Assembly: GCA_965243205.1 (NCBI GenBank)
Contig: CBDEUK010000002.1
Coordinates: 800,001 to 864,000 of the forward strand
DNA length: 64,000 bases
Source: Gammaproteobacteria bacterium
GTDB taxonomy: Bacteria; Pseudomonadota; Gammaproteobacteria; Eutrophobiales; Eutrophobiaceae
Reading direction: 5' to 3'
Below, piece after piece: positions 13,276-50,548 of the stretch; positions within the stretch are counted from its first letter, which is position 1, and every line of letters begins with the position of its first letter. A model generated the notes under the pieces. That model did not search any database and was not told the DNA's origin. It saw nothing but the letters and a program-made list of their open reading frames with translations. The position numbers and the translations under genes are program-made.

Positions 13276-13950
13276 ATGAAATACTTTTTACCTATCATGT
13301 TATTATTTTCAAGTAATGTGTTATCTATTGAGAGTGTATGTTACGGAACAACATCAAAAGGCAGTCTAGAGAATGGGGTTAAGTTACCTCCAAAGGGAAA
13401 CAATTTTATCAGTTATAGTAATATGGCTGAAATATTAGGCCGAACATATGTCCATTCCGAAGTTAAAAAAATTATTATTGCTGCATATAAAGACTTAGAA
13501 ACATCACAACCTAATAAAGTTTTCAAATACGCTGAAACCGGTTCCAAAAGCGGTGGGCAATTTAAACCACACAAAACACATCAAAATGGTTTATCTGTTG
13601 ATTTCATGATACCAGTAATTAACTCAAAAGGCGAATCCGTTCATTTACCAACTCATGCACTCAATAAATTTGGTTATAACATTGAATTTGATAAAAATGG
13701 TAATTACGATGATTTAACCATTGATTATGAGGCTTTAGCTGCTCATATAACTGCTTTGCATAAACAATCTAAAAAGATAGGCTATAATTTGTGGCGTGTT
13801 ATTTTTGATCCTAAATTACAAGCAAATCTTTTTAAAACTAAATACGCAGATTATCTAAAAAATAATATACAATTTTCGAAAAAAAGATCATGGGTTAGGC
13901 ATGATGAACATTATCATGTTGATTTCTCCATTCCATGTAAGAAATTTTAG
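13276..13950 (+). CDS. MepA-like penicillin-insensitive murein endopeptidase
   Basis: Signal peptide; G.L.NG..LP, HKTHQNGLSVDF and HDEHYH (LAS-type Zn ligands). Confidence 0.8.
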   Translation: MKYFLPIMLLFSSNVLSIESVCYGTTSKGSLENGVKLPPKGNNFISYSNMAEILGRTYVHSEVKKIIIAAYKDLETSQPNKVFKYAETGSKSGGQFKPHKTHQNGLSVDFMIPVINSKGESVHLPTHALNKFGYNIEFDKNGNYDDLTIDYEALAAHITALHKQSKKIGYNLWRVIFDPKLQANLFKTKYADYLKNNIQFSKKRSWVRHDEHYHVDFSIPCKKF

Positions 13951-13987: not shown

Positions 13988-14016
13988 TTGACTTCCTAAA
14001 CCTTCTCAGTAATGAT
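13988..14016 (+). promoter_or_regulatory. sigma70-type promoter for the attenuator leader
   Basis: TTGACT (13988-13993), 17 nt, AATGAT (14011-14016); predicted +1 falls on or next to the leader ATG at 14023. Confidence 0.55.
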
Positions 14017-14022
14017 CAACTT

Positions 14023-14076
14023 ATGAATATAGATTCTCTACGCACAAATTTTCGAATTATTACCATCATTCCATAG
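14023..14076 (+). CDS. Attenuator leader peptide MNIDSLRTNFRIITIIP (17 aa)
   Basis: Not in ORF track. Ends ATT ATT ACC ATC ATT CCA TAG; the control codons overlap segment 1 of the attenuator. Confidence 0.8.
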   Translation: MNIDSLRTNFRIITIIP

Positions 14077-14138
14077 GAATGGTGGGTTTTGATACGTAAA
14101 TCATTTTCAAACCCGCCCAAGAGGCGGGTTTTTATTAT
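14063..14138 (+). promoter_or_regulatory. Four-segment transcription attenuator (pause / antiterminator / terminator)
   Basis: 1:2 = CCATCATTCC(14063-72)/GGAATGGTGG(14076-85); 2:3 = GGTGGGTTTTGA(14081-92)/TCAAACCCGCC(14107-17); 3:4 = AAACCCGCC(14109-17)/GGCGGGTTT(14123-31) followed by TTATTAT. Confidence 0.85.
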
Positions 14139-14177
14139 CAGCTTCTTGGGCATTGAGTAATAGCCAAAGGAGGCAAT

Positions 14178-14705
14178 ATGAAAAAAATAGCAATATTCGG
14201 AAATACTGGAGGTGGTAAGTCTACATTGGCTAAACAATTAGCCGAAGTTACTGGGCTTCCACTCTACCCTTTAGATAAAATACAATACAAATTTGGTGGT
14301 GCAAAAGTATCAGACGATAAATATCTAAAAGCTCATGTTGAACTATTACGGCAAGAGAAATGGATCATCGATGGCTTTGGTAATATTACAACTGCATGGG
14401 AACGCTTTGGTGTTGCCGATACATTAATCTATATCGACTTACCTCTAATGACACATGCGCTATGGGTAACCAAGCGATTTTTTAAAGGCTTTATTGTTAA
14501 CCCTGAGGGTTGGCCTGATAAGAGTCCTTTATTTAAAAGTACATTGAATAGTTATCGAGTACTTTGGTTATGCCATCGCAAGCTCACACCTGCTTATCGA
14601 AAACTAGTAGCTGAATCTATGGAATCGAAAAATGTTTATCATTTAAAGTCGCCTGCTGACATACAGCAATTTTTAGATGATATACAATCAAAAAATATTT
14701 TATAA
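14178..14705 (+). CDS. P-loop small-molecule kinase (adenylate kinase-like / FlaR-like)
   Basis: AAGGAGG RBS; KIAIFGNTGGGKSTLA, LD, WIIDG, ADTLIYIDLP. Confidence 0.85.
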   Translation: MKKIAIFGNTGGGKSTLAKQLAEVTGLPLYPLDKIQYKFGGAKVSDDKYLKAHVELLRQEKWIIDGFGNITTAWERFGVADTLIYIDLPLMTHALWVTKRFFKGFIVNPEGWPDKSPLFKSTLNSYRVLWLCHRKLTPAYRKLVAESMESKNVYHLKSPADIQQFLDDIQSKNIL

Positions 14706-14741
14706 ATTAATACTTCAGATTTATTTTTAAATAATTGAATT

Positions 14742-15362
14742 ATGTTTAACAAAGAAAATCTTCATGCCAGTCTTTCAAAATTAGGTATTTCTAATCCAGG
14801 AGATATCTTTGAAAGGCTAGAAGCTGCTTACACAGACTCTACTAGGTTCTATCATAATGAAACTCATGTCAGTGAATGTTTGAAATACCTGTATGAATAT
14901 TCTTATCTCGCGAATAATATTACTGAAATTGAGATCGCTATTTGGTTTCACGATGCTATCTATGATACGCATCGTAATGATAATGAAGAATTGAGTGCTG
15001 CTTGGGCCAATGATTATCTCAATAATTTCGCTATAACGAATAACATTGTTAAAAATATATATGACATGATTATATGCACTAAGACACATGTTGCCGATAA
15101 TATAGATGCTCAACTAATGCTTGATATTGATCTCAGTGTTTTAGGCGCATCAAATGAAGTATTTGAATCTTACGATAAAAAAATTCGCAAAGAATATCAT
15201 TGGATTTCAGAACTCGACTATCGAAAAGGGAGGATAGAGGTTTTAGAATCATTTCTAAAACGAGAAAACATTTATCACACTTCAGAATTCTCAGAACGTT
15301 TTGATAAAAAAGCTCGAAATAATCTCTCACGTAAGATAAAGGAATTATCGTCTAGTAATTAA
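14742..15362 (+). CDS. Predicted metal-dependent phosphohydrolase, HD superfamily (COG4339-like)
   Basis: RFYHNETH, WFHDAIYD, NEELSA, DIDLSVLG, IRKEY, ARNNL. Confidence 0.85.
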   Translation: MFNKENLHASLSKLGISNPGDIFERLEAAYTDSTRFYHNETHVSECLKYLYEYSYLANNITEIEIAIWFHDAIYDTHRNDNEELSAAWANDYLNNFAITNNIVKNIYDMIICTKTHVADNIDAQLMLDIDLSVLGASNEVFESYDKKIRKEYHWISELDYRKGRIEVLESFLKRENIYHTSEFSERFDKKARNNLSRKIKELSSSN

Positions 15363-15371
15363 ACAATAATT

Positions 15372-15403
15372 ATAGAGCGAGTTAACTAATTAACTCGCTC
15401 TAT
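15372..15403. terminator. Hairpin between convergent genes, probable bidirectional terminator
   Basis: ATAGAGCGAGTTAA-CTAA-TTAACTCGCTCTAT, 14-bp perfect stem. Confidence 0.7.
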
Positions 15404-15407
15404 GCTT

Positions 15408-16313
15408 TTATGAAACTACTAATTCACATCCATCTTCCGATGTATCTTGCCAACCTATTTCACTAGGCCACCGACCTAATAATTTCGGTAAATAATTAAT
15501 ATTGGGAGCATTATAACCTTGCATCAATTCATAGTGACCAAACGATAATGGCGTCCAATTAATTACATCAAAGATATGACTAACGATTCTCACTATAAAT
15601 TTATTAATCGGAATTTGCATAGTTGACTCAAGATGTTTTGTTTTTCTAAGCTCAGTTAAGTACTCAGCAATACTCATAACATCGTTGCCTCCTAACTCAA
15701 CAATGCTAGGTAATTCTTTTTGTGTATAAAACACAATGTTTGCTATCGCTTCACCTAAATCAGAAACTTGTAATGGAGCTACTAAACCATCTGACTTCAT
15801 CACAAACTGTATTGGCCATAACGCCACTCTTCTAAACCATTTTGCTCCAAAACCTCCTTTACCATCTAATAATGATGGTCTTACGATCACTGCATTTGCC
15901 CCACTAGCAAATATTGCCTGCTCACCTGCATACTTAGATTTAATAAAGCGACTGCCTGCTGTAGGCGATAAGCCTAAAGCTGAAACGTGGATAAGTTTGA
16001 TATTTAAACCCTTACACGCACTGGCCAAAGCAGAAACACTGTTAGTATGTACATCTGCATACGATTCATTTTTACGTTCTCTTAAAATACCTACACTATT
16101 CACCACCACATCAAAATTGCTCAAAATATTCTTCCATTTTGATGGTTCTAACATTTCGTGCATACGCACCGTTATTTCATTGCTTTTAATATTGGTTTTT
16201 TGTGTTCCGATGCTAACTTGAGCATTATTGCTTAAAAACTTAACCACTTGGTTACCGATAAATCCATTACCACCTAAGACTAAAGCTCTGATATTTCGAT
16301 TATTTTCATTCAT
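15408..16313 (-). CDS. NAD(P)-dependent epimerase / atypical SDR (NDUFA9-like)
   Basis: GGNGFIG, VNSVGIL, HVSALG, SKY.GE, IVRPSL. Confidence 0.85.
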   Translation of the reverse strand: MNENNRNIRALVLGGNGFIGNQVVKFLSNNAQVSIGTQKTNIKSNEITVRMHEMLEPSKWKNILSNFDVVVNSVGILRERKNESYADVHTNSVSALASACKGLNIKLIHVSALGLSPTAGSRFIKSKYAGEQAIFASGANAVIVRPSLLDGKGGFGAKWFRRVALWPIQFVMKSDGLVAPLQVSDLGEAIANIVFYTQKELPSIVELGGNDVMSIAEYLTELRKTKHLESTMQIPINKFIVRIVSHIFDVINWTPLSFGHYELMQGYNAPNINYLPKLLGRWPSEIGWQDTSEDGCELVVS

Positions 16314-16400: not shown

Positions 16401-16934
16401 ATGAGCGAAAAAATAGAATTAAGTGAACAAGGTAATCAGTTTGTTTTGCACTGGGGTGAAATGGGTTCCCGTTGGGGAATCAATCGTACAGTGTCACAGA
16501 TCCATGCTTTTTTGTATTACATCGGCCAGCCAGCCAATGCAGAACAAATCTCAGAAACTTTGCATGTTGCACGTTCGAATGTCAGTAATAGTTTAAAAGA
16601 ATTGCAAAATTGGAATTTGATTCATGTAACGCATGTAATGGGAGATAGACGAGATTATTTTGAAACATCTTTGGATGTATGGGCGTTATTTAGAACCATA
16701 ATCACTGAAAGAAAAACTCGTGAGTTTGATCCAACTGTAGATTTTCTTAAATCGTTTCTTAAACAAAACAATTTTAATAAAAATGACAAAGAAGCAAAAA
16801 AACGTGTCGAAGACATACTAGAGCTTATGGAAGCTTTATCTGTTTGGGGTGAAGAAATGTTAAACCTTAAACCAGAGACGCTGACTAAAATAATGAAATA
16901 TGGTACGAAAATTCAAAAATTACTGAGAACTTAA
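16401..16934 (+). CDS. GbsR/MarR-family transcriptional regulator
   Basis: FVLHWGEMGSRWGINRTVSQIHA, ARSNVSNSLKEL, GDRRDYF. Confidence 0.9.
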   Translation: MSEKIELSEQGNQFVLHWGEMGSRWGINRTVSQIHAFLYYIGQPANAEQISETLHVARSNVSNSLKELQNWNLIHVTHVMGDRRDYFETSLDVWALFRTIITERKTREFDPTVDFLKSFLKQNNFNKNDKEAKKRVEDILELMEALSVWGEEMLNLKPETLTKIMKYGTKIQKLLRT

Positions 16935-16937
16935 ATT

Positions 16938-17345
16938 ATGGATGTTACCTACCCTTTAACTATTTATTACGACGCATCTTGTCCTATGTGTAAAACTGAA
17001 ATGGAAACCTTAAAAGAAACTGATACTGAAAATAAACTTATTCTAAAAGATTGTTCTGATAAAAATTTATCGGTACCAACAAGTTGCCCTGTTACGCGAG
17101 AAGAAATGATGGAACGTATACATGCAATTGATGCGAATGGTATTTGGATCAAAAGTGTGGATGTATTCGCTGTAGCTTATGATGCGAGTGGCTATAAAAC
17201 TATTTCTAAAATTTGGGCAAGCAAAACATTGAAACCAATACTTAGCAGAGCTTATCCATTCATTGCTGATAATAGAAAATGGCTTTCAAAAACACCATTA
17301 CCTTATTTTCTAAATCGAGTATTGAAATTCCTTTCTAAAAAATAA
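16938..17345 (+). CDS. DCC-family (DUF393) thiol-disulfide oxidoreductase-like protein
   Basis: IYYDASCPMC (DxxCxxC), YPFIADNR. Confidence 0.85.
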   Translation: MDVTYPLTIYYDASCPMCKTEMETLKETDTENKLILKDCSDKNLSVPTSCPVTREEMMERIHAIDANGIWIKSVDVFAVAYDASGYKTISKIWASKTLKPILSRAYPFIADNRKWLSKTPLPYFLNRVLKFLSKK

Positions 17346-47029: not shown

Positions 47030-48046
47030 TTATTCAAAAAAGCTATGGATAGATTGATTCCAGCGCCAAAACTTCAACCATATGGAATACTCTAATGTGA
47101 TTTCATACTCGTCAGTAATGATATTTAACTGATGAATTTTTTTATTTTTCAGTAACGATAAAACTTTTTCTAACCATTCGGTTTCAATTTTTTTTATTGT
47201 TTCTAACCAACCAACTGGTTCATCATACTGAGTGGATTGTAATGTATCATTTATGATGATTAAATTTTGAGTTTGCTGATTGAAGTCATATCGACTCCAA
47301 AAATCCTTAGCTGGAAAATAATCCATTGATGATAACATTGCCAAACATTCAACCAAATTTTCATTTGAAAAAACTGCAGACCATTTTCTATCCAAACTAC
47401 GCGGTATTTCGCCAGCTCCCCAAAACCATAAACTGTTGATCGGTAATTCACCTCTCTGTTCACGTTGCTGATTTATTTCGCAGTCATGCAATCGCATTTG
47501 AATATCATTAAACAATGATATCCAGCGTGACTCTTCTTCACCAATGGGTAAATGATTGGCTATATCTTTTCCTGATACTCGATGAATATCATGGGTTTTG
47601 ATCGAAGGTTGTTTGTTTAATTTTAAATACCAATGATCATTCTCGGGAATTTCAATTTCAATATTCTGTTCTTTAAACAAATCATTCAAATAACCAGCAA
47701 TAGCAAGAATATCATGGCGAGATAAAGCAAATTGACGTGAATCAAACAATACCAATCCATTGCTTGTAGGTTTAAGATGAACTGGATCCGCATACATCCA
47801 AATCCCTTCGGGCCTTTCATCATCGATTTTTAATCGTGAAATGGCGGCAAAAGGCACTTCATTATTTGAAATATCAAGAGCAAAAAGAGTTGATATGCGC
47901 TCAAGATACGTTAATGGAGTAATCTTTCGTATTGTTCCTAAGTTTAATAGGCTACGTAAAGATTTTAAGTCGGCTAAATCTTCTGCTGTATATTCAGGTA
48001 TAAAATGAAATAACCCTGGAATATAAAGCGTAAGATGATGCATCAA
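47030..48046 (-). CDS. Conserved protein commonly found between thrC and recJ (phosphoglycerate mutase-like)
   Basis: ADPVHL, QMRLH...N..R...G..PINSLWFWG. Confidence 0.75.
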   Translation of the reverse strand: MMHHLTLYIPGLFHFIPEYTAEDLADLKSLRSLLNLGTIRKITPLTYLERISTLFALDISNNEVPFAAISRLKIDDERPEGIWMYADPVHLKPTSNGLVLFDSRQFALSRHDILAIAGYLNDLFKEQNIEIEIPENDHWYLKLNKQPSIKTHDIHRVSGKDIANHLPIGEEESRWISLFNDIQMRLHDCEINQQREQRGELPINSLWFWGAGEIPRSLDRKWSAVFSNENLVECLAMLSSMDYFPAKDFWSRYDFNQQTQNLIIINDTLQSTQYDEPVGWLETIKKIETEWLEKVLSLLKNKKIHQLNIITDEYEITLEYSIWLKFWRWNQSIHSFFE

Positions 48047-48049
48047 TGA

Positions 48050-49192
48050 CTAACTAATATTATCCAATATTGCTTTTTCTACTTCACTCAATGTTGCTTG
48101 AGTCTTGATCACAGGTGCAGTACTTTGTTTTATCGCGGTATCTGGATCTTTCAAACCATGACCAGTCAAAGTACAAACAACTGTACTACCTGCAGGGATT
48201 TTTCCAGATTTAATATCATACAAAGCACCTGCTACAGAGGTTGCAGAGGCAGGTTCACAAAAGACCCCTTCTTTTTCAGCTAACATCTTTTGCGTTTTTA
48301 ATATTTCTTCATCAGAAAACTCATCAAACCAACCACCAGACTCTTTATTCACTATCCAAGCATTATCCCAAGATTGAGGATGACCTATACGAATGGCTGT
48401 TGCGACTGTTTCTGGATTATCGACCATTGCTCCACGCATAAAAGGTGCTGAACCTGCAGCTTGATAACCTACCATTACCGGTCGTTTATCGATAATAACT
48501 TCGTTTGTGAATTCACAATCACCTTGGCACAAGCTACAACCTTCGGAAGTTTTACCACCTTTAGGAGTAGCGTATTCTGAATAACCTAACCAATGGGCTG
48601 TGATGTTACCCGCGTTACCTACAGGCAAACAATGATAATCGGGCGCACGACCTAACTCTTCAATAATTTCAAATGATGCTGTTTTCTGACCTTGTAATCG
48701 ATAAGGGTTAATTGAATTCACAATGGTTACTGGTGCTGTTTCAGCCACTTCTTTGACTAAGCGCATACCATCATCAAAGTTACCTTGAATTTGAATAACC
48801 ACAGCACCTTCCATCATAGCCTGTGCTAATTTACCTTGCGCAATTTTACCATCAGGGATTAATACAAATGCCGTCATCCCAGCACGGGCCGCGTATGCAG
48901 CAGCCGCGGCAGACGTATTACCCGTAGAAGCACAGATGATCGCTTTAGAGTTATCTTCTGCTGCTTTACTAACGGCCATGGTCATACCACGGTCTTTAAA
49001 TGATCCCGTTGGATTTAACCCTTCGTATTTAACATATAACTCTACATCCAGTTCCAATAGGCCAGGAATATTATTTAATCTTATGAGAGGAGTATTACCC
49101 TCACCTAAACTGATCACAGGTGTTTTATCACTTACTGGTAAACGATCACGATAGTGATCAATTAAACCTGTATAGCGTTTACGAAATGTCAT
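48050..49192 (-). CDS. thrC: Threonine synthase
   Basis: NPTGSFKDRG, CASTGNTS, PVGNAGN, TGHGLKDP. Confidence 0.96.
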   Translation of the reverse strand: MTFRKRYTGLIDHYRDRLPVSDKTPVISLGEGNTPLIRLNNIPGLLELDVELYVKYEGLNPTGSFKDRGMTMAVSKAAEDNSKAIICASTGNTSAAAAAYAARAGMTAFVLIPDGKIAQGKLAQAMMEGAVVIQIQGNFDDGMRLVKEVAETAPVTIVNSINPYRLQGQKTASFEIIEELGRAPDYHCLPVGNAGNITAHWLGYSEYATPKGGKTSEGCSLCQGDCEFTNEVIIDKRPVMVGYQAAGSAPFMRGAMVDNPETVATAIRIGHPQSWDNAWIVNKESGGWFDEFSDEEILKTQKMLAEKEGVFCEPASATSVAGALYDIKSGKIPAGSTVVCTLTGHGLKDPDTAIKQSTAPVIKTQATLSEVEKAILDNIS

Positions 49193-50502
49193 TATTGCAA
49201 ACTCTCCACGCGAATCCTCATCACGTCTTTTTTAACTTGTTCTAATGCCTCAATCTTTTTAATGGCATCGTTCATAAATTTTTCTTGTACCGATTGAGTT
49301 AAGATAATAACAGGTACATCTGATTCATCTGCAGCAGCTTCTTTTTGAATAATCGCTTCAATGCTAATGCCTGTATCACCTAAAATTTTAGTGACATCCG
49401 CTAACACGCCAGGCTCATCAGTCACTTGTAAGCGTAAATAGTACGCGGTTTCAACTTCTTCCATATCCAATATAGGGAAATCTGATAAGGCATCAGATTG
49501 GAATGCCAAATGAGGCACATGATTTTCTGGATCGGAAGTCAACGCTCTTACTACATCAATAACGTCAGCAACGACTGCAGAGGCCGTTGGTTCAGCACCT
49601 GCACCAGGGCCATAATATAAGGTAGGTCCAACAGCATCGCCTTTAACGACAACTGCATTCATCACTCCATCAACATTCGCAATCAAACGTCGATGAGGAA
49701 TTAACGTTGGATGAACACGTAATTCAATACCATTATCTGTTTTACGCGTAATACCTAAATGTTTGATGCGGTAACCTAGCTCACCAGCGTAAGTAACATC
49801 TTGTACTTCGATTTTAGTAATACCTTCGGTATACGCCTTATCAAATTGCAAAGGGATACCAAATGCAATAGATCCCATAATGGTTAACTTATGTGCTGCA
49901 TCAATCCCTTCAACATCAAAGGTCGGATCTGCTTCAGCGTAGCCAAGCTCTTGGGCTTCTTTTAATACGTCATCAAAGTCACGCCCCTTGTCACGCATTT
50001 CAGTCAGGATAAAGTTGCCTGTACCATTAATGATTCCTGCAGCCCACAATAATTGATTCGCTGCCAAGCCTTCGCGCATTGCTTTAATGATTGGGATGCC
50101 GCCAGCAACAGCAGCTTCAAAAGCAACCATCACTCCTTTCTTATGTGCAGCTTCAAAGATTTCATTGCCATGAATAGCGATTAGGGCTTTATTAGCAGTC
50201 ACAACATGTTTTCCATTTTCAATCGCGGTCATAACCAATTCTTTTGCAGGTTCATAACCACCGATTAGCTCAACTACGATATCAACATCTGGATCATTAA
50301 CGACAGCGAACAAATCATTGCTTAAGTTAGGAATGCTATCCATGCCATCTGCATCACGATTAATACTTCTAGATGCTGCATGTGAAACTTGAATACCTCG
50401 ACCAGCTCGTCGAGTAATTTCTTCAGCATTACGGTTTAAGACTTGAACGGTTCCACCACCAACAGTTCCTAAACCCAAGACTCCTATATTGACAGGTTTC
50501 AT
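49192..50502 (-). CDS. hom: Homoserine dehydrogenase with ACT domain
   Basis: GLGTVG, TANKA, EAAVAGGIP, GYAEADP; likely start MKPVNIG at 50502. Confidence 0.96.
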   Translation of the reverse strand: MKPVNIGVLGLGTVGGGTVQVLNRNAEEITRRAGRGIQVSHAASRSINRDADGMDSIPNLSNDLFAVVNDPDVDIVVELIGGYEPAKELVMTAIENGKHVVTANKALIAIHGNEIFEAAHKKGVMVAFEAAVAGGIPIIKAMREGLAANQLLWAAGIINGTGNFILTEMRDKGRDFDDVLKEAQELGYAEADPTFDVEGIDAAHKLTIMGSIAFGIPLQFDKAYTEGITKIEVQDVTYAGELGYRIKHLGITRKTDNGIELRVHPTLIPHRRLIANVDGVMNAVVVKGDAVGPTLYYGPGAGAEPTASAVVADVIDVVRALTSDPENHVPHLAFQSDALSDFPILDMEEVETAYYLRLQVTDEPGVLADVTKILGDTGISIEAIIQKEAAADESDVPVIILTQSVQEKFMNDAIKKIEALEQVKKDVMRIRVESLQ

Positions 50503-50548
50503 TATGATTTTTTCTCTAAACAATTATTCTATAAATTTATACGATTCT

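Follow-up and report, generated by a model that had tools for sequence, protein, structure and literature searches.

In this study, we analysed a 64,000-nt stretch of DNA (the window) from a gammaproteobacterium of the family Eutrophobiaceae (assembly GCA_965243205.1, contig CBDEUK010000002.1, positions 800,001 to 864,000), in which a short leader RNA precedes a gene for an adenylate-kinase-like P-loop kinase and a gene for an HD-superfamily-like protein. The locus is probably a ribosome-mediated transcription attenuator that reads charged tRNA-Ile and gates this two-gene unit. Judged by its match, the RNA already has an Rfam family, RF00624 ('Pseudomonas sRNA P9'), and is hence no new element; the family is filed as a small RNA (sRNA), and we consider it likely that it should be read as an Ile leader-peptide attenuator. 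The novel parts appear to be this Ile-leader reading, a dominant and ancient coupling to the kinase, a predicted leaderless upstream open reading frame (uORF), an outer helix and the mobility of the module.

The whole anatomy of a thr/ilv-type leader-peptide attenuator is present at the locus, with Ile as the sensed residue (Table 1). A first-pass annotation, made from the letters alone, had pointed to a uORF ending in Ile-Ile-Thr-Ile-Ile-Pro and to a layout of the thrL/ilvL type, and both were found as described. Four Ile codons (14056-14061 and 14065-14070) fall within codons 12-16 of the uORF, and three helices that are predicted to exclude one another follow from this segment onwards, namely the anti-antiterminator 1:2, the antiterminator 2:3 and the intrinsic terminator 3:4. 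The leader folds with -33.2 kcal/mol (z = -4.57), and none of 200 shuffled sequences was as stable. A covariance model built from 27 leaders (leader call at E <= 0.01) matched the window once only, at 14014-14133, so that hom and thrC, both present in the window, have no such leader, as the annotation had stated.

Comparison with other genomes revealed a recurrent pairing of leader and kinase. When named genomes were scanned with a kinase alignment, 551 relatives were obtained; leader tests were run on the best 80 of these, and 25 of the 80 loci had the leader. The gammaproteobacterial carriers were Methylotuvimicrobium, Microbulbifer, Cellvibrionaceae, Oleiphilus, Oceanospirillum, Marinobacterium, Marinobacter, Shewanella and Granulosicoccaceae, and the others were Terasakiella (Alphaproteobacteria), Desulfuromonas and Geopsychrobacteraceae (Desulfuromonadota) and one Acaryochloris (Cyanobacteria). 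The 55 loci without the leader belonged chiefly to Alpha- and Betaproteobacteria, Nitrospira, Coriobacteriia and cyanobacteria. Among genomes sampled at class level, two (G084 and G104) carry the uORFs MDTNLTQQIARIIIIIP and MNTNLTQQIARIIIIP, and in both genomes a homologue of the window kinase comes next. In the converse search, a degenerate leader pattern was run against metagenome contigs and gave at least 120 loci; all 120 matches listed were inspected, many of their contigs being close kin, and the metagenome counts given here and below refer to these matches. A uORF was found at 118 of the 120 loci, was 16-17 codons long in 116 of the 118 and had three to five Ile within its last seven residues. 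The first downstream open reading frame (ORF) encoded the kinase at 108 loci and a DUF4440 protein at one, while 11 loci were too short; the kinase was thus the next gene in 108 of 109 assessable loci.

On a FastTree phylogeny that comprised 83 kinases but not L088, the distribution of the leader required 4 changes as compared with 23.6 in shuffles (0/500), and the leader occurred in both deep kinase clades, between which identity is about 44%. No other neighbour of the kinase was conserved, the largest non-kinase cluster being present at 6 of the 80 loci. These sequence comparisons indicate that the leader-kinase pairing is conserved across phyla and that the coupling is dominant and ancient. 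A chance origin of the leader was rejected by the comparative tests (covariation, permutation, kinase linkage and tree). The idea that the hairpin is the terminator of the upstream MepA-like gene (13276-13950) combined with an accidental uORF was also rejected, because the leader accompanies the kinase in unrelated upstream contexts. A degenerate leader copy (33 bits) was noted upstream of the kinase in a low-GC gammaproteobacterial metagenome-assembled genome (MAG; L060, 2349-2461), and this copy may be a decaying attenuator.

Conservation of the structure was counted in an alignment of 31 leaders that was fitted to the structure model and leans towards it, many of its rows being kin. In this alignment, 90.7% of the paired cells could pair, versus 39-47% when the partners were slid; nine pairs were changed on both sides, versus 4.9 +/- 1.3 in shuffles (1 of 500 reached nine); and the covariation score was 0.172, versus 0.138 +/- 0.008 (0/500 shuffles). 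In helix 1:2, 93.8% of the cells were paired and five of the ten pairs had both sides changed, and in the terminator helix 3:4 95.9% of the cells were paired. RNAalifold gave 12 pairs, two of them with double changes. The core hairpin and the terminator show little covariation because their sequence is nearly invariant, and GGTGGG of segment 2 is identical in all 27 leaders. The outer helix, which links codons 6-9 with the spacer after segment 2, shows clear swaps, one pair being GC in 12 rows and AU in 10. In an alignment-free test on 23 non-redundant leaders, its cognate duplexes had a mean of -9.21 kcal/mol, compared with -7.06 +/- 0.47 kcal/mol for permuted ones (0/20000). The first-pass annotation had proposed comparing the regions upstream of homologous kinases for an Ile-rich uORF and covarying stems and cataloguing the genes that follow the leader. 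The Ile-rich uORF turned out to be conserved in the genome and the metagenome set, and the catalogue comprises two families, the kinase and DUF4440; of the stems, 1:2 and 3:4 were paired or covarying, as was the outer helix, but 2:3 was invariant.

In co-transcriptional folds, computed before segment 4 is made, the antiterminator (-14.3 kcal/mol) formed when the RNA 5' of 14072 or 14081 was masked; these masks, the two stall cases folded, mimic a ribosome that has halted with the codon of I13 or I16 in its A site. The antiterminator did not form without a ribosome, because segment 2 was locked in helix 1:2, or with a ribosome at the stop codon, because GGTGGG was covered. In the attenuator model, transcription would start at or beside the uORF ATG and give a leaderless mRNA. 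When no ribosome stalls, the 5' half of the leader would pair with its 3' half (outer helices and helix 1:2), or else GGTGGG would be covered by a ribosome that has reached the stop codon; segment 2 would thus be unavailable, helix 3:4 would form and RNA polymerase would stop at about 14133. Termination would release an RNA of about 110-130 nt, corresponding to the 'P9 sRNA' of Pseudomonas. When Ile-tRNA is scarce, the ribosome would stall on I12-I16 and hold the 5' strands, which would free GGTGGGTTTTGA for pairing with TCAAACCCGCC before segment 4 is made, and the polymerase would read through into the kinase gene and, at this locus, into the HD gene too. If this model is true, cells want the kinase when Ile-tRNA runs short.

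The window uORF has no Shine-Dalgarno (SD) sequence, and its promoter geometry matches that of the leader family exactly. Among 104 distinct metagenome upstream sequences, TTGACA lies at exactly -35 to -30 from the uORF ATG, and the -10 element at -12 to -7 has A at -11 in 95% and T at -7 in 87%. Just 19 of the 104 have an SD-like 4-mer ahead of the uORF. Since the -10 element ends 6 nt before the ATG and an SD is lacking, the uORF is predicted to be leaderless, with transcription expected to begin at the A of the AUG or beside it. A leaderless start, if true, would synchronise the first ribosome with RNA polymerase. To our knowledge, neither such a predicted leaderless uORF nor an outer helix has been described for textbook attenuators.

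Several observations weigh against an Ile-responsive attenuator. In the complete RNA at equilibrium, the terminator won in every case, even with segment 1 masked, which means that the choice of structure must be made kinetically, as it is in classical attenuators. The outer helix of the window itself is weak (-5.3 kcal/mol, rank 21 of 23), helix 2:3 has no covariation support because its bases never vary, and the pair counts come from the structure-fitted alignment with its many related rows. Promoter-like sites near the locus are no commoner than chance (14 found, 19.2 expected). The pattern of a uORF and a terminator alone is not rare in the AT-rich host genome (36.7% GC): a crude scan gave about 11 distinct sites with a one-residue-enriched uORF ahead of a terminator, four of them Ile-type, among 324 strict terminators. 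The evidence from a single genome is therefore weak, and it is the comparative evidence that decides. As to Pseudomonas, which is discussed below, we infer the link between P9 and the gene PA1325 from gene length, spacing and homologous loci, and the induction by tobramycin or an EF-G mutation fits any ribosome-stalling model and not Ile sensing specifically. In the host genome, other Ile-rich uORFs stand before terminator-like hairpins at C2:477624-477730 (+), at C2:1885470-1885591 (+) and at coordinate 729213 on the reverse complement of C2 (an example from this set is MEIITISIGKAV); these may be chance occurrences or additional leaders.

A different signal can be imagined for the same uORF, namely that the C-terminus R-I-I-I-I-P-stop stalls the ribosome on a small molecule or a ribosome drug, in the manner of TnaC or Erm leaders, instead of uncharged tRNA-Ile being read. 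Pro-stop is known to slow translation termination, and it ends most of the genome-derived uORFs; the fixed uORF length would also suit an arrest peptide, and so would the response of the related operon in P. aeruginosa, which the reports cited below show to be induced by tobramycin and an EF-G mutation. However, the CC of the Pro codon is set by the stem (C61 and C62 are paired) and its third base takes all four values, and the Pro-stop of the metagenome set is uninformative because the search pattern itself imposed ATTCCNTAGG. Moreover, a Vibrio plasmid leader, MKCNRTTFNQRIIIIL-TAA, ends in ...RIIIIL-TAA with compensating changes in the stem; 4 of the 27 aligned uORFs, and likewise those of L046, L093 and L096, extend beyond the usual stop; and the number of Ile varies from three to five among the metagenome matches. 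Synonymous ATT/ATC changes are found among the leader relatives. The Ile run is thus kept while the end of the peptide varies, which favours the sensing of Ile-tRNA supply over peptide-specific arrest, and we regard nascent-peptide arrest as distinctly unlikely.

The Rfam assignment rests on a cmscan match of RF00624 to 14053-14132 (56.6 bits versus a gathering cut-off of 43, E = 1e-10), which spans the whole model (positions 1-74 of 74) with the same 5' hairpin, spacer and terminator. The P9 consensus, in frame with the window uORF, opens AUU AUU AUU ACC, and the Rfam models of Phe, Trp and Leu leaders stayed below their cut-offs on the window element. The match is unique in the 2.79-Mb host genome. 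P9 was over the cut-off in 2 of 61 relatives (host genome included), in none of 36 genomes of the same family and in 3 of 151 genomes sampled across the class; given such sparse matches, the leader element is sporadic. According to Livny et al. (2006; PMC1524904), P9 lies at 1,436,491-1,436,618 in P. aeruginosa PAO1 and is seen on Northern blots as a band of about 130 nt, both in exponential and in stationary phase; a 405-nt gene follows 44 nt downstream on the same strand. Membership of a family typed 'Gene; sRNA' and this discrete RNA, present in both growth phases, might suggest a trans-acting sRNA of about 120 nt that base-pairs with distant targets. Yet a terminated leader would give the same band, and the element always lies about 40-45 nt upstream, on the same strand, of one of two gene families, has a conserved uORF with synonymous variation and possesses an antiterminator alternative, all of which makes a trans-acting role extremely unlikely. 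A literature search, outside which lay subscription journals and supplementary files, found no paper on this leader as an attenuator or on its link to the kinase, and none under RF00624 or 'sRNA P9' or joining PA1324/PA1325 with an sRNA.

The DUF4440 family provides a sister leader. In three genomes (G047, G187 and G214; loci L002, L093 and L096), a P9-type leader with an extended uORF, for example MKRQAIILQQIIIIIRREW, lies about 44 nt upstream of a 133-134-aa DUF4440/SnoaL-like gene, and the L046 leader also stands before a DUF4440 homologue (tblastn match of 129 aa). The context in L002, L093 and L096 is PAO1-like, whereas the window locus has the kinase instead. In the family and order of G187, P9 matches numbered 2 of 46 and DUF4440 matches 2 of 127, and in each case they came from G187 and G214. 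That P9 is the leader of PA1325-ilvA2 is probable, judging from gene length, from spacing, from the homologous loci and from the presumed gene order of PAO1. A preprint (bioRxiv 10.1101/842781) describes PA1325 and PA1326 (ilvA2, threonine dehydratase) of P. aeruginosa as 'an operonic pair', and in a fusA1 P443L (EF-G) mutant no genes were more strongly up-regulated than these two. Two other reports list PA1325 as a DUF4440 protein co-induced with IlvA2 (PMC13015387) and ilvA2 as up 24.7-fold with tobramycin (PMC8120321). If P9 does lead PA1325-ilvA2, such leaders respond to translation stress, which is what a ribosome-stalling switch predicts and which would explain the top induction of the pair under EF-G mutation or aminoglycoside stress; the family would then hold a plainly biosynthetic Ile attenuator, and the leader class would not be divorced from biosynthesis.

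At E <= 0.001 the kinase, which is the product conserved behind the leader, has 2873 relatives; identity across phyla is 55-73%, and many of the relatives bear the name 'adenylate kinase family enzyme'. Its Walker A motif is GNTGGGKST, of which G8 and K14-S15 are invariant in 31 sequences and G11, G12, G13 and T16 are at least 90% conserved; IIDGFG, ADTL..DLP, VTKR and PEGWP are kept as well. Pfam gave P-loop fragments only, and the best NCBIfam match, to PRK08118 'DNA topology modulation protein' (FlaR), reached 88 bits, so far under the equivalog cut-off of 215 that the family is separate and unnamed. An AF2 model (pLDDT 83) matched AK6, Fap7 and adenylate kinase chains with a Foldseek probability of 1.00 and, among the matches listed, TM values of 0.46-0.64 (best 1rkb, 3iij, 4cvn and 8pvw); among the same matches, the predicted structure also resembles shikimate and gluconate kinases. 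ESM Atlas returned the generic labels 'shikimate kinase', 'adenylate kinase' and 'DNA topology modulation protein' only, and a sequence search of the PDB gave nothing better than E = 0.43 for the kinase and no match for the HD protein. Our best guess is that the substrate is a nucleotide or nucleoside-like small molecule, the phosphorylation of which helps when Ile-tRNA charging fails. The leader provides a first regulatory handle on this large, highly conserved kinase family.

Elsewhere, homologues of the kinase occur as an integron cassette, as their flanking sequences reveal. At L063 (452-2111), an IntI integrase (TIGR02249, 501.7 bits versus a cut-off of 265) is divergent from the kinase, which is flanked by attC-like cores: GTTGGGC 43 nt upstream and, downstream, GCCCAAC and then GTTAGGC about 50-120 nt on. 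The kinases of L046 and L057 have the same flanks, and the cassette copies, near-identical although from different taxa, form one tight clade on the kinase tree. No attC/IntI context was seen around the window's own copy. On the megaplasmid pTHAF190c_b of Vibrio sp. THAF190c (L228, 2343-3016), the leader MKCNRTTFNQRIIIIL-TAA and the kinase stand in a run of small same-strand genes (VOC, GNAT, LprI, YHS, CutA, ACT, methyltransferase and nucleotidyltransferase) that resembles a cassette array; five genes upstream of this leader-kinase pair lies an HD-domain gene. In a Methylobacter MAG (L046, 66-620), the leader MRYENFVSQRIITIVLFERWVC, with promoter and terminator, is followed by a DUF4440 gene, an attC-like site and the kinase, an order in which a cassette-like unit appears to carry its own attenuator. 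The finding of the module near integron cassettes, on megaplasmids and across phyla means that amino-acid attenuators can travel with accessory genes.

The first-pass annotation had suggested that the leader may sense inhibitors of isoleucyl-tRNA synthetase (IleRS) or toxic Ile analogues, which the kinase, together with the HD enzyme, would modify or detoxify; this reading is speculative. By the established mechanism, any Ile-codon attenuator would be expected to open on IleRS inhibition. The kinase is sporadic and stands alone in variable contexts and on megaplasmids, its cassette form next to IntI is what one would expect of an adaptive accessory gene, a marine origin is common among the hosts, and the modelled adenylate-kinase-like fold would imply a nucleotide-like substrate pocket. 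Against this, searches of Pfam, NCBIfam and PADLOC placed the kinase in no known resistance or defence family and gave sub-cut-off P-loop or FlaR-like matches only; a relative of solved structure that acts on a drug was found neither by the PDB sequence search nor among the Foldseek matches listed; the HD gene is no conserved neighbour of the kinase; the sister leader would belong to ilvA2, an ordinary Ile-pathway gene; 55 of the 80 kinase loci lack the leader; and the literature search found no paper linking the kinase or the leader to IleRS inhibitors. We consider this modifying or detoxifying role unlikely. A part in anti-phage defence was rejected, PADLOC having given two weak P-loop matches only (16.9 and 13.7 bits). 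In a broader form, the P9 family may be a portable sensor of Ile-tRNA charging, made up of promoter, leaderless Ile-run peptide and attenuator and carried with its cargo, and the kinase a dedicated response to charging failure that phosphorylates, for example, a nucleoside-type or IleRS-directed toxin or an IleRS-blocking metabolite. This is a tentative and rather doubtful proposal; if true, it would represent a new amino-acid-specific stress or resistance module.

The second gene of the unit is probably co-transcribed with the kinase gene here, as its position suggests. It has no Pfam or NCBIfam match, contains an H...HD-like pattern (HNETH ... FHDAIYD) and has homologues that JGI and NCBI call 'predicted metal-dependent HD superfamily phosphohydrolase'. 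It adjoins the kinase in 1 of 216 loci compared, that of the window itself, and its membership of a conserved module was accordingly rejected. The first-pass annotation had described the output as a kinase plus, probably, an HD enzyme, non-biosynthetic and set in an accessory region. Both ORFs are where it had placed them, but the HD gene is no conserved partner; the kinase is a conserved non-canonical output, but the sister leader appears to precede the Ile-pathway DUF4440-ilvA2; and the kinase gene is sporadic and mobile (integron cassettes, megaplasmids and the 3 of 151 class-level genomes over the Rfam cut-off). The terminator that closes the unit faces a convergent NAD-dependent epimerase/RmlD-like gene (15408-16313). 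Beyond it, in the segment 16339-17345, a strong promoter-like site (TTGACA-18-GATAAT, 11/12 matches) precedes a MarR-family regulator (16401-16934), which is followed by a DCC1-like thiol-disulfide oxidoreductase (16938-17345).

Table 1. Positions in the window of the leader, the genes behind it and the hom-thrC cluster
Feature	Position	Strand	Remarks
Leader promoter, -35 hexamer TTGACT	13988..13993	+	Read from the window sequence
Leader promoter, -10 hexamer AATGAT	14011..14016	+	17-nt spacer; ends 6 nt before uORF ATG
Leader peptide uORF, MNIDSLRTNFRIITIIP + TAG	14023..14076	+	17 codons; ATG 14023, TAG 14074-14076
Outer helices, 5' strands	14039..14056	+	Minimum free energy fold; TACG (14039-14042) with 14095-14098, TCGAA (14052-14056) with 14088-14092
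Regulatory codons ATT ATT ACC ATC ATT (I12 I13 T14 I15 I16)	14056..14070	+	
Helix 1:2 (anti-antiterminator)	14063..14085	+	10-bp hairpin; CCATCATTCC (14063-14072) with GGAATGGTGG (14076-14085); stop codon in and beside loop
Helix 2:3 (antiterminator)	14081..14117	+	11 bp; GGTGGGTTTTGA (14081-14092) with TCAAACCCGCC (14107-14117); duplex -15.5 kcal/mol
Intrinsic terminator, helix 3:4	14109..14133	+	GC-rich helix 14109-14131 and U-tract, T-run to 14133
Shine-Dalgarno AAGGAGG of kinase gene	14167..14173	+	Read from the sequence
P-loop kinase, adenylate-kinase/FlaR-like	14178..14705	+	175 aa (528 nt); conserved output of the leader
HD-superfamily-like protein	14742..15362	+	206 aa; 36-nt gap after kinase, no terminator seen between
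Bidirectional terminator closing the unit	15371..15404	.	14-15-bp near-perfect inverted repeat
apgM-like ORF	47030..48046	-	338 aa; directly after hom-thrC
thrC	48050..49192	-	
hom	49192..50523	-	

The Ile/Thr pathway of the host was examined for a biosynthetic role of the kinase. The host genome (G000, 100% complete) has hom, thrC, ilvA, ilvC and ilvD, and with the three ilv genes the host presumably makes Ile; the nearest relatives of its IlvD come from MAGs that carry the label Gammaproteobacteria or Thiotrichaceae. As thrB, thrB_alt and ThrH are all absent over their cut-offs, and as the sister leader would belong to ilvA2, the kinase could be an Ile/Thr-pathway enzyme, such as a non-orthologous homoserine kinase, and the attenuator biosynthetic after all. 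However, the apgM-like ORF after hom-thrC weakly resembles both cofactor-independent phosphoglycerate mutase and the 'proposed homoserine kinase' model TIGR02535 (39.9 bits versus a cut-off of 446); it may represent a divergent, non-canonical form of homoserine kinase and is a likelier candidate for this activity than the window kinase. In addition, a canonical homoserine kinase was over the cut-off in all five other kinase-bearing genomes tested, so that the window-type kinase is no general homoserine-kinase substitute, and the kinase gene is sporadic and cassette-borne. A replacement homoserine kinase was largely rejected on the strength of the apgM-like ORF and the five carriers, and we regard a pathway role of the kinase as very unlikely.

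The probable Ile-tRNA-responsive attenuator can be compared with several known systems. The predicted size of the window transcript fits the band of about 130 nt given for PAO1 P9 by Livny et al.; unlike the sRNA gene of the Rfam entry, the window element reads as a leader-peptide attenuator, and the next gene is a 528-nt kinase, as in most relatives, whereas that of PAO1 is given there as 405 nt long. With adenylate kinase, AK6 (hCINAP, Fap7) and FlaR kinases, the window kinase shares Walker A, IIDGFG and, in the model, an adenylate-kinase-like core fold, but its family has a PEGWP / VTKR / YRVLWLCH region of its own, which is modelled at low confidence. Drug-responsive leader peptides are well known ahead of resistance genes, such as the erm, cat/cml and ABC-F leaders and PA5471.1 for MexXY. 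As in these, a stall on the uORF is proposed to open a downstream accessory gene, and the related ilvA2 responds to tobramycin and an EF-G mutation; in contrast to them, the window-type leaders conserve a run of Ile codons and no drug-specific arrest motif, and the kinase belongs to no known resistance family. The closest parallels are the enterobacterial thr, ilv, trp, his, leu and phe attenuators, with which the window leader shares a uORF with clustered sensed codons, helices 1:2, 2:3 and 3:4 that are predicted to exclude one another, an intrinsic terminator and a stop codon placed so that the terminating ribosome would mask segment 2. It differs from them in that its output is a kinase and not a pathway operon, that a leaderless uORF is predicted (SD absent, -10 element ending 6 nt ahead of the ATG), that codons 6-9 and the spacer behind segment 2 form an additional outer helix, and that modules of this type move between phyla and sit among cassettes.

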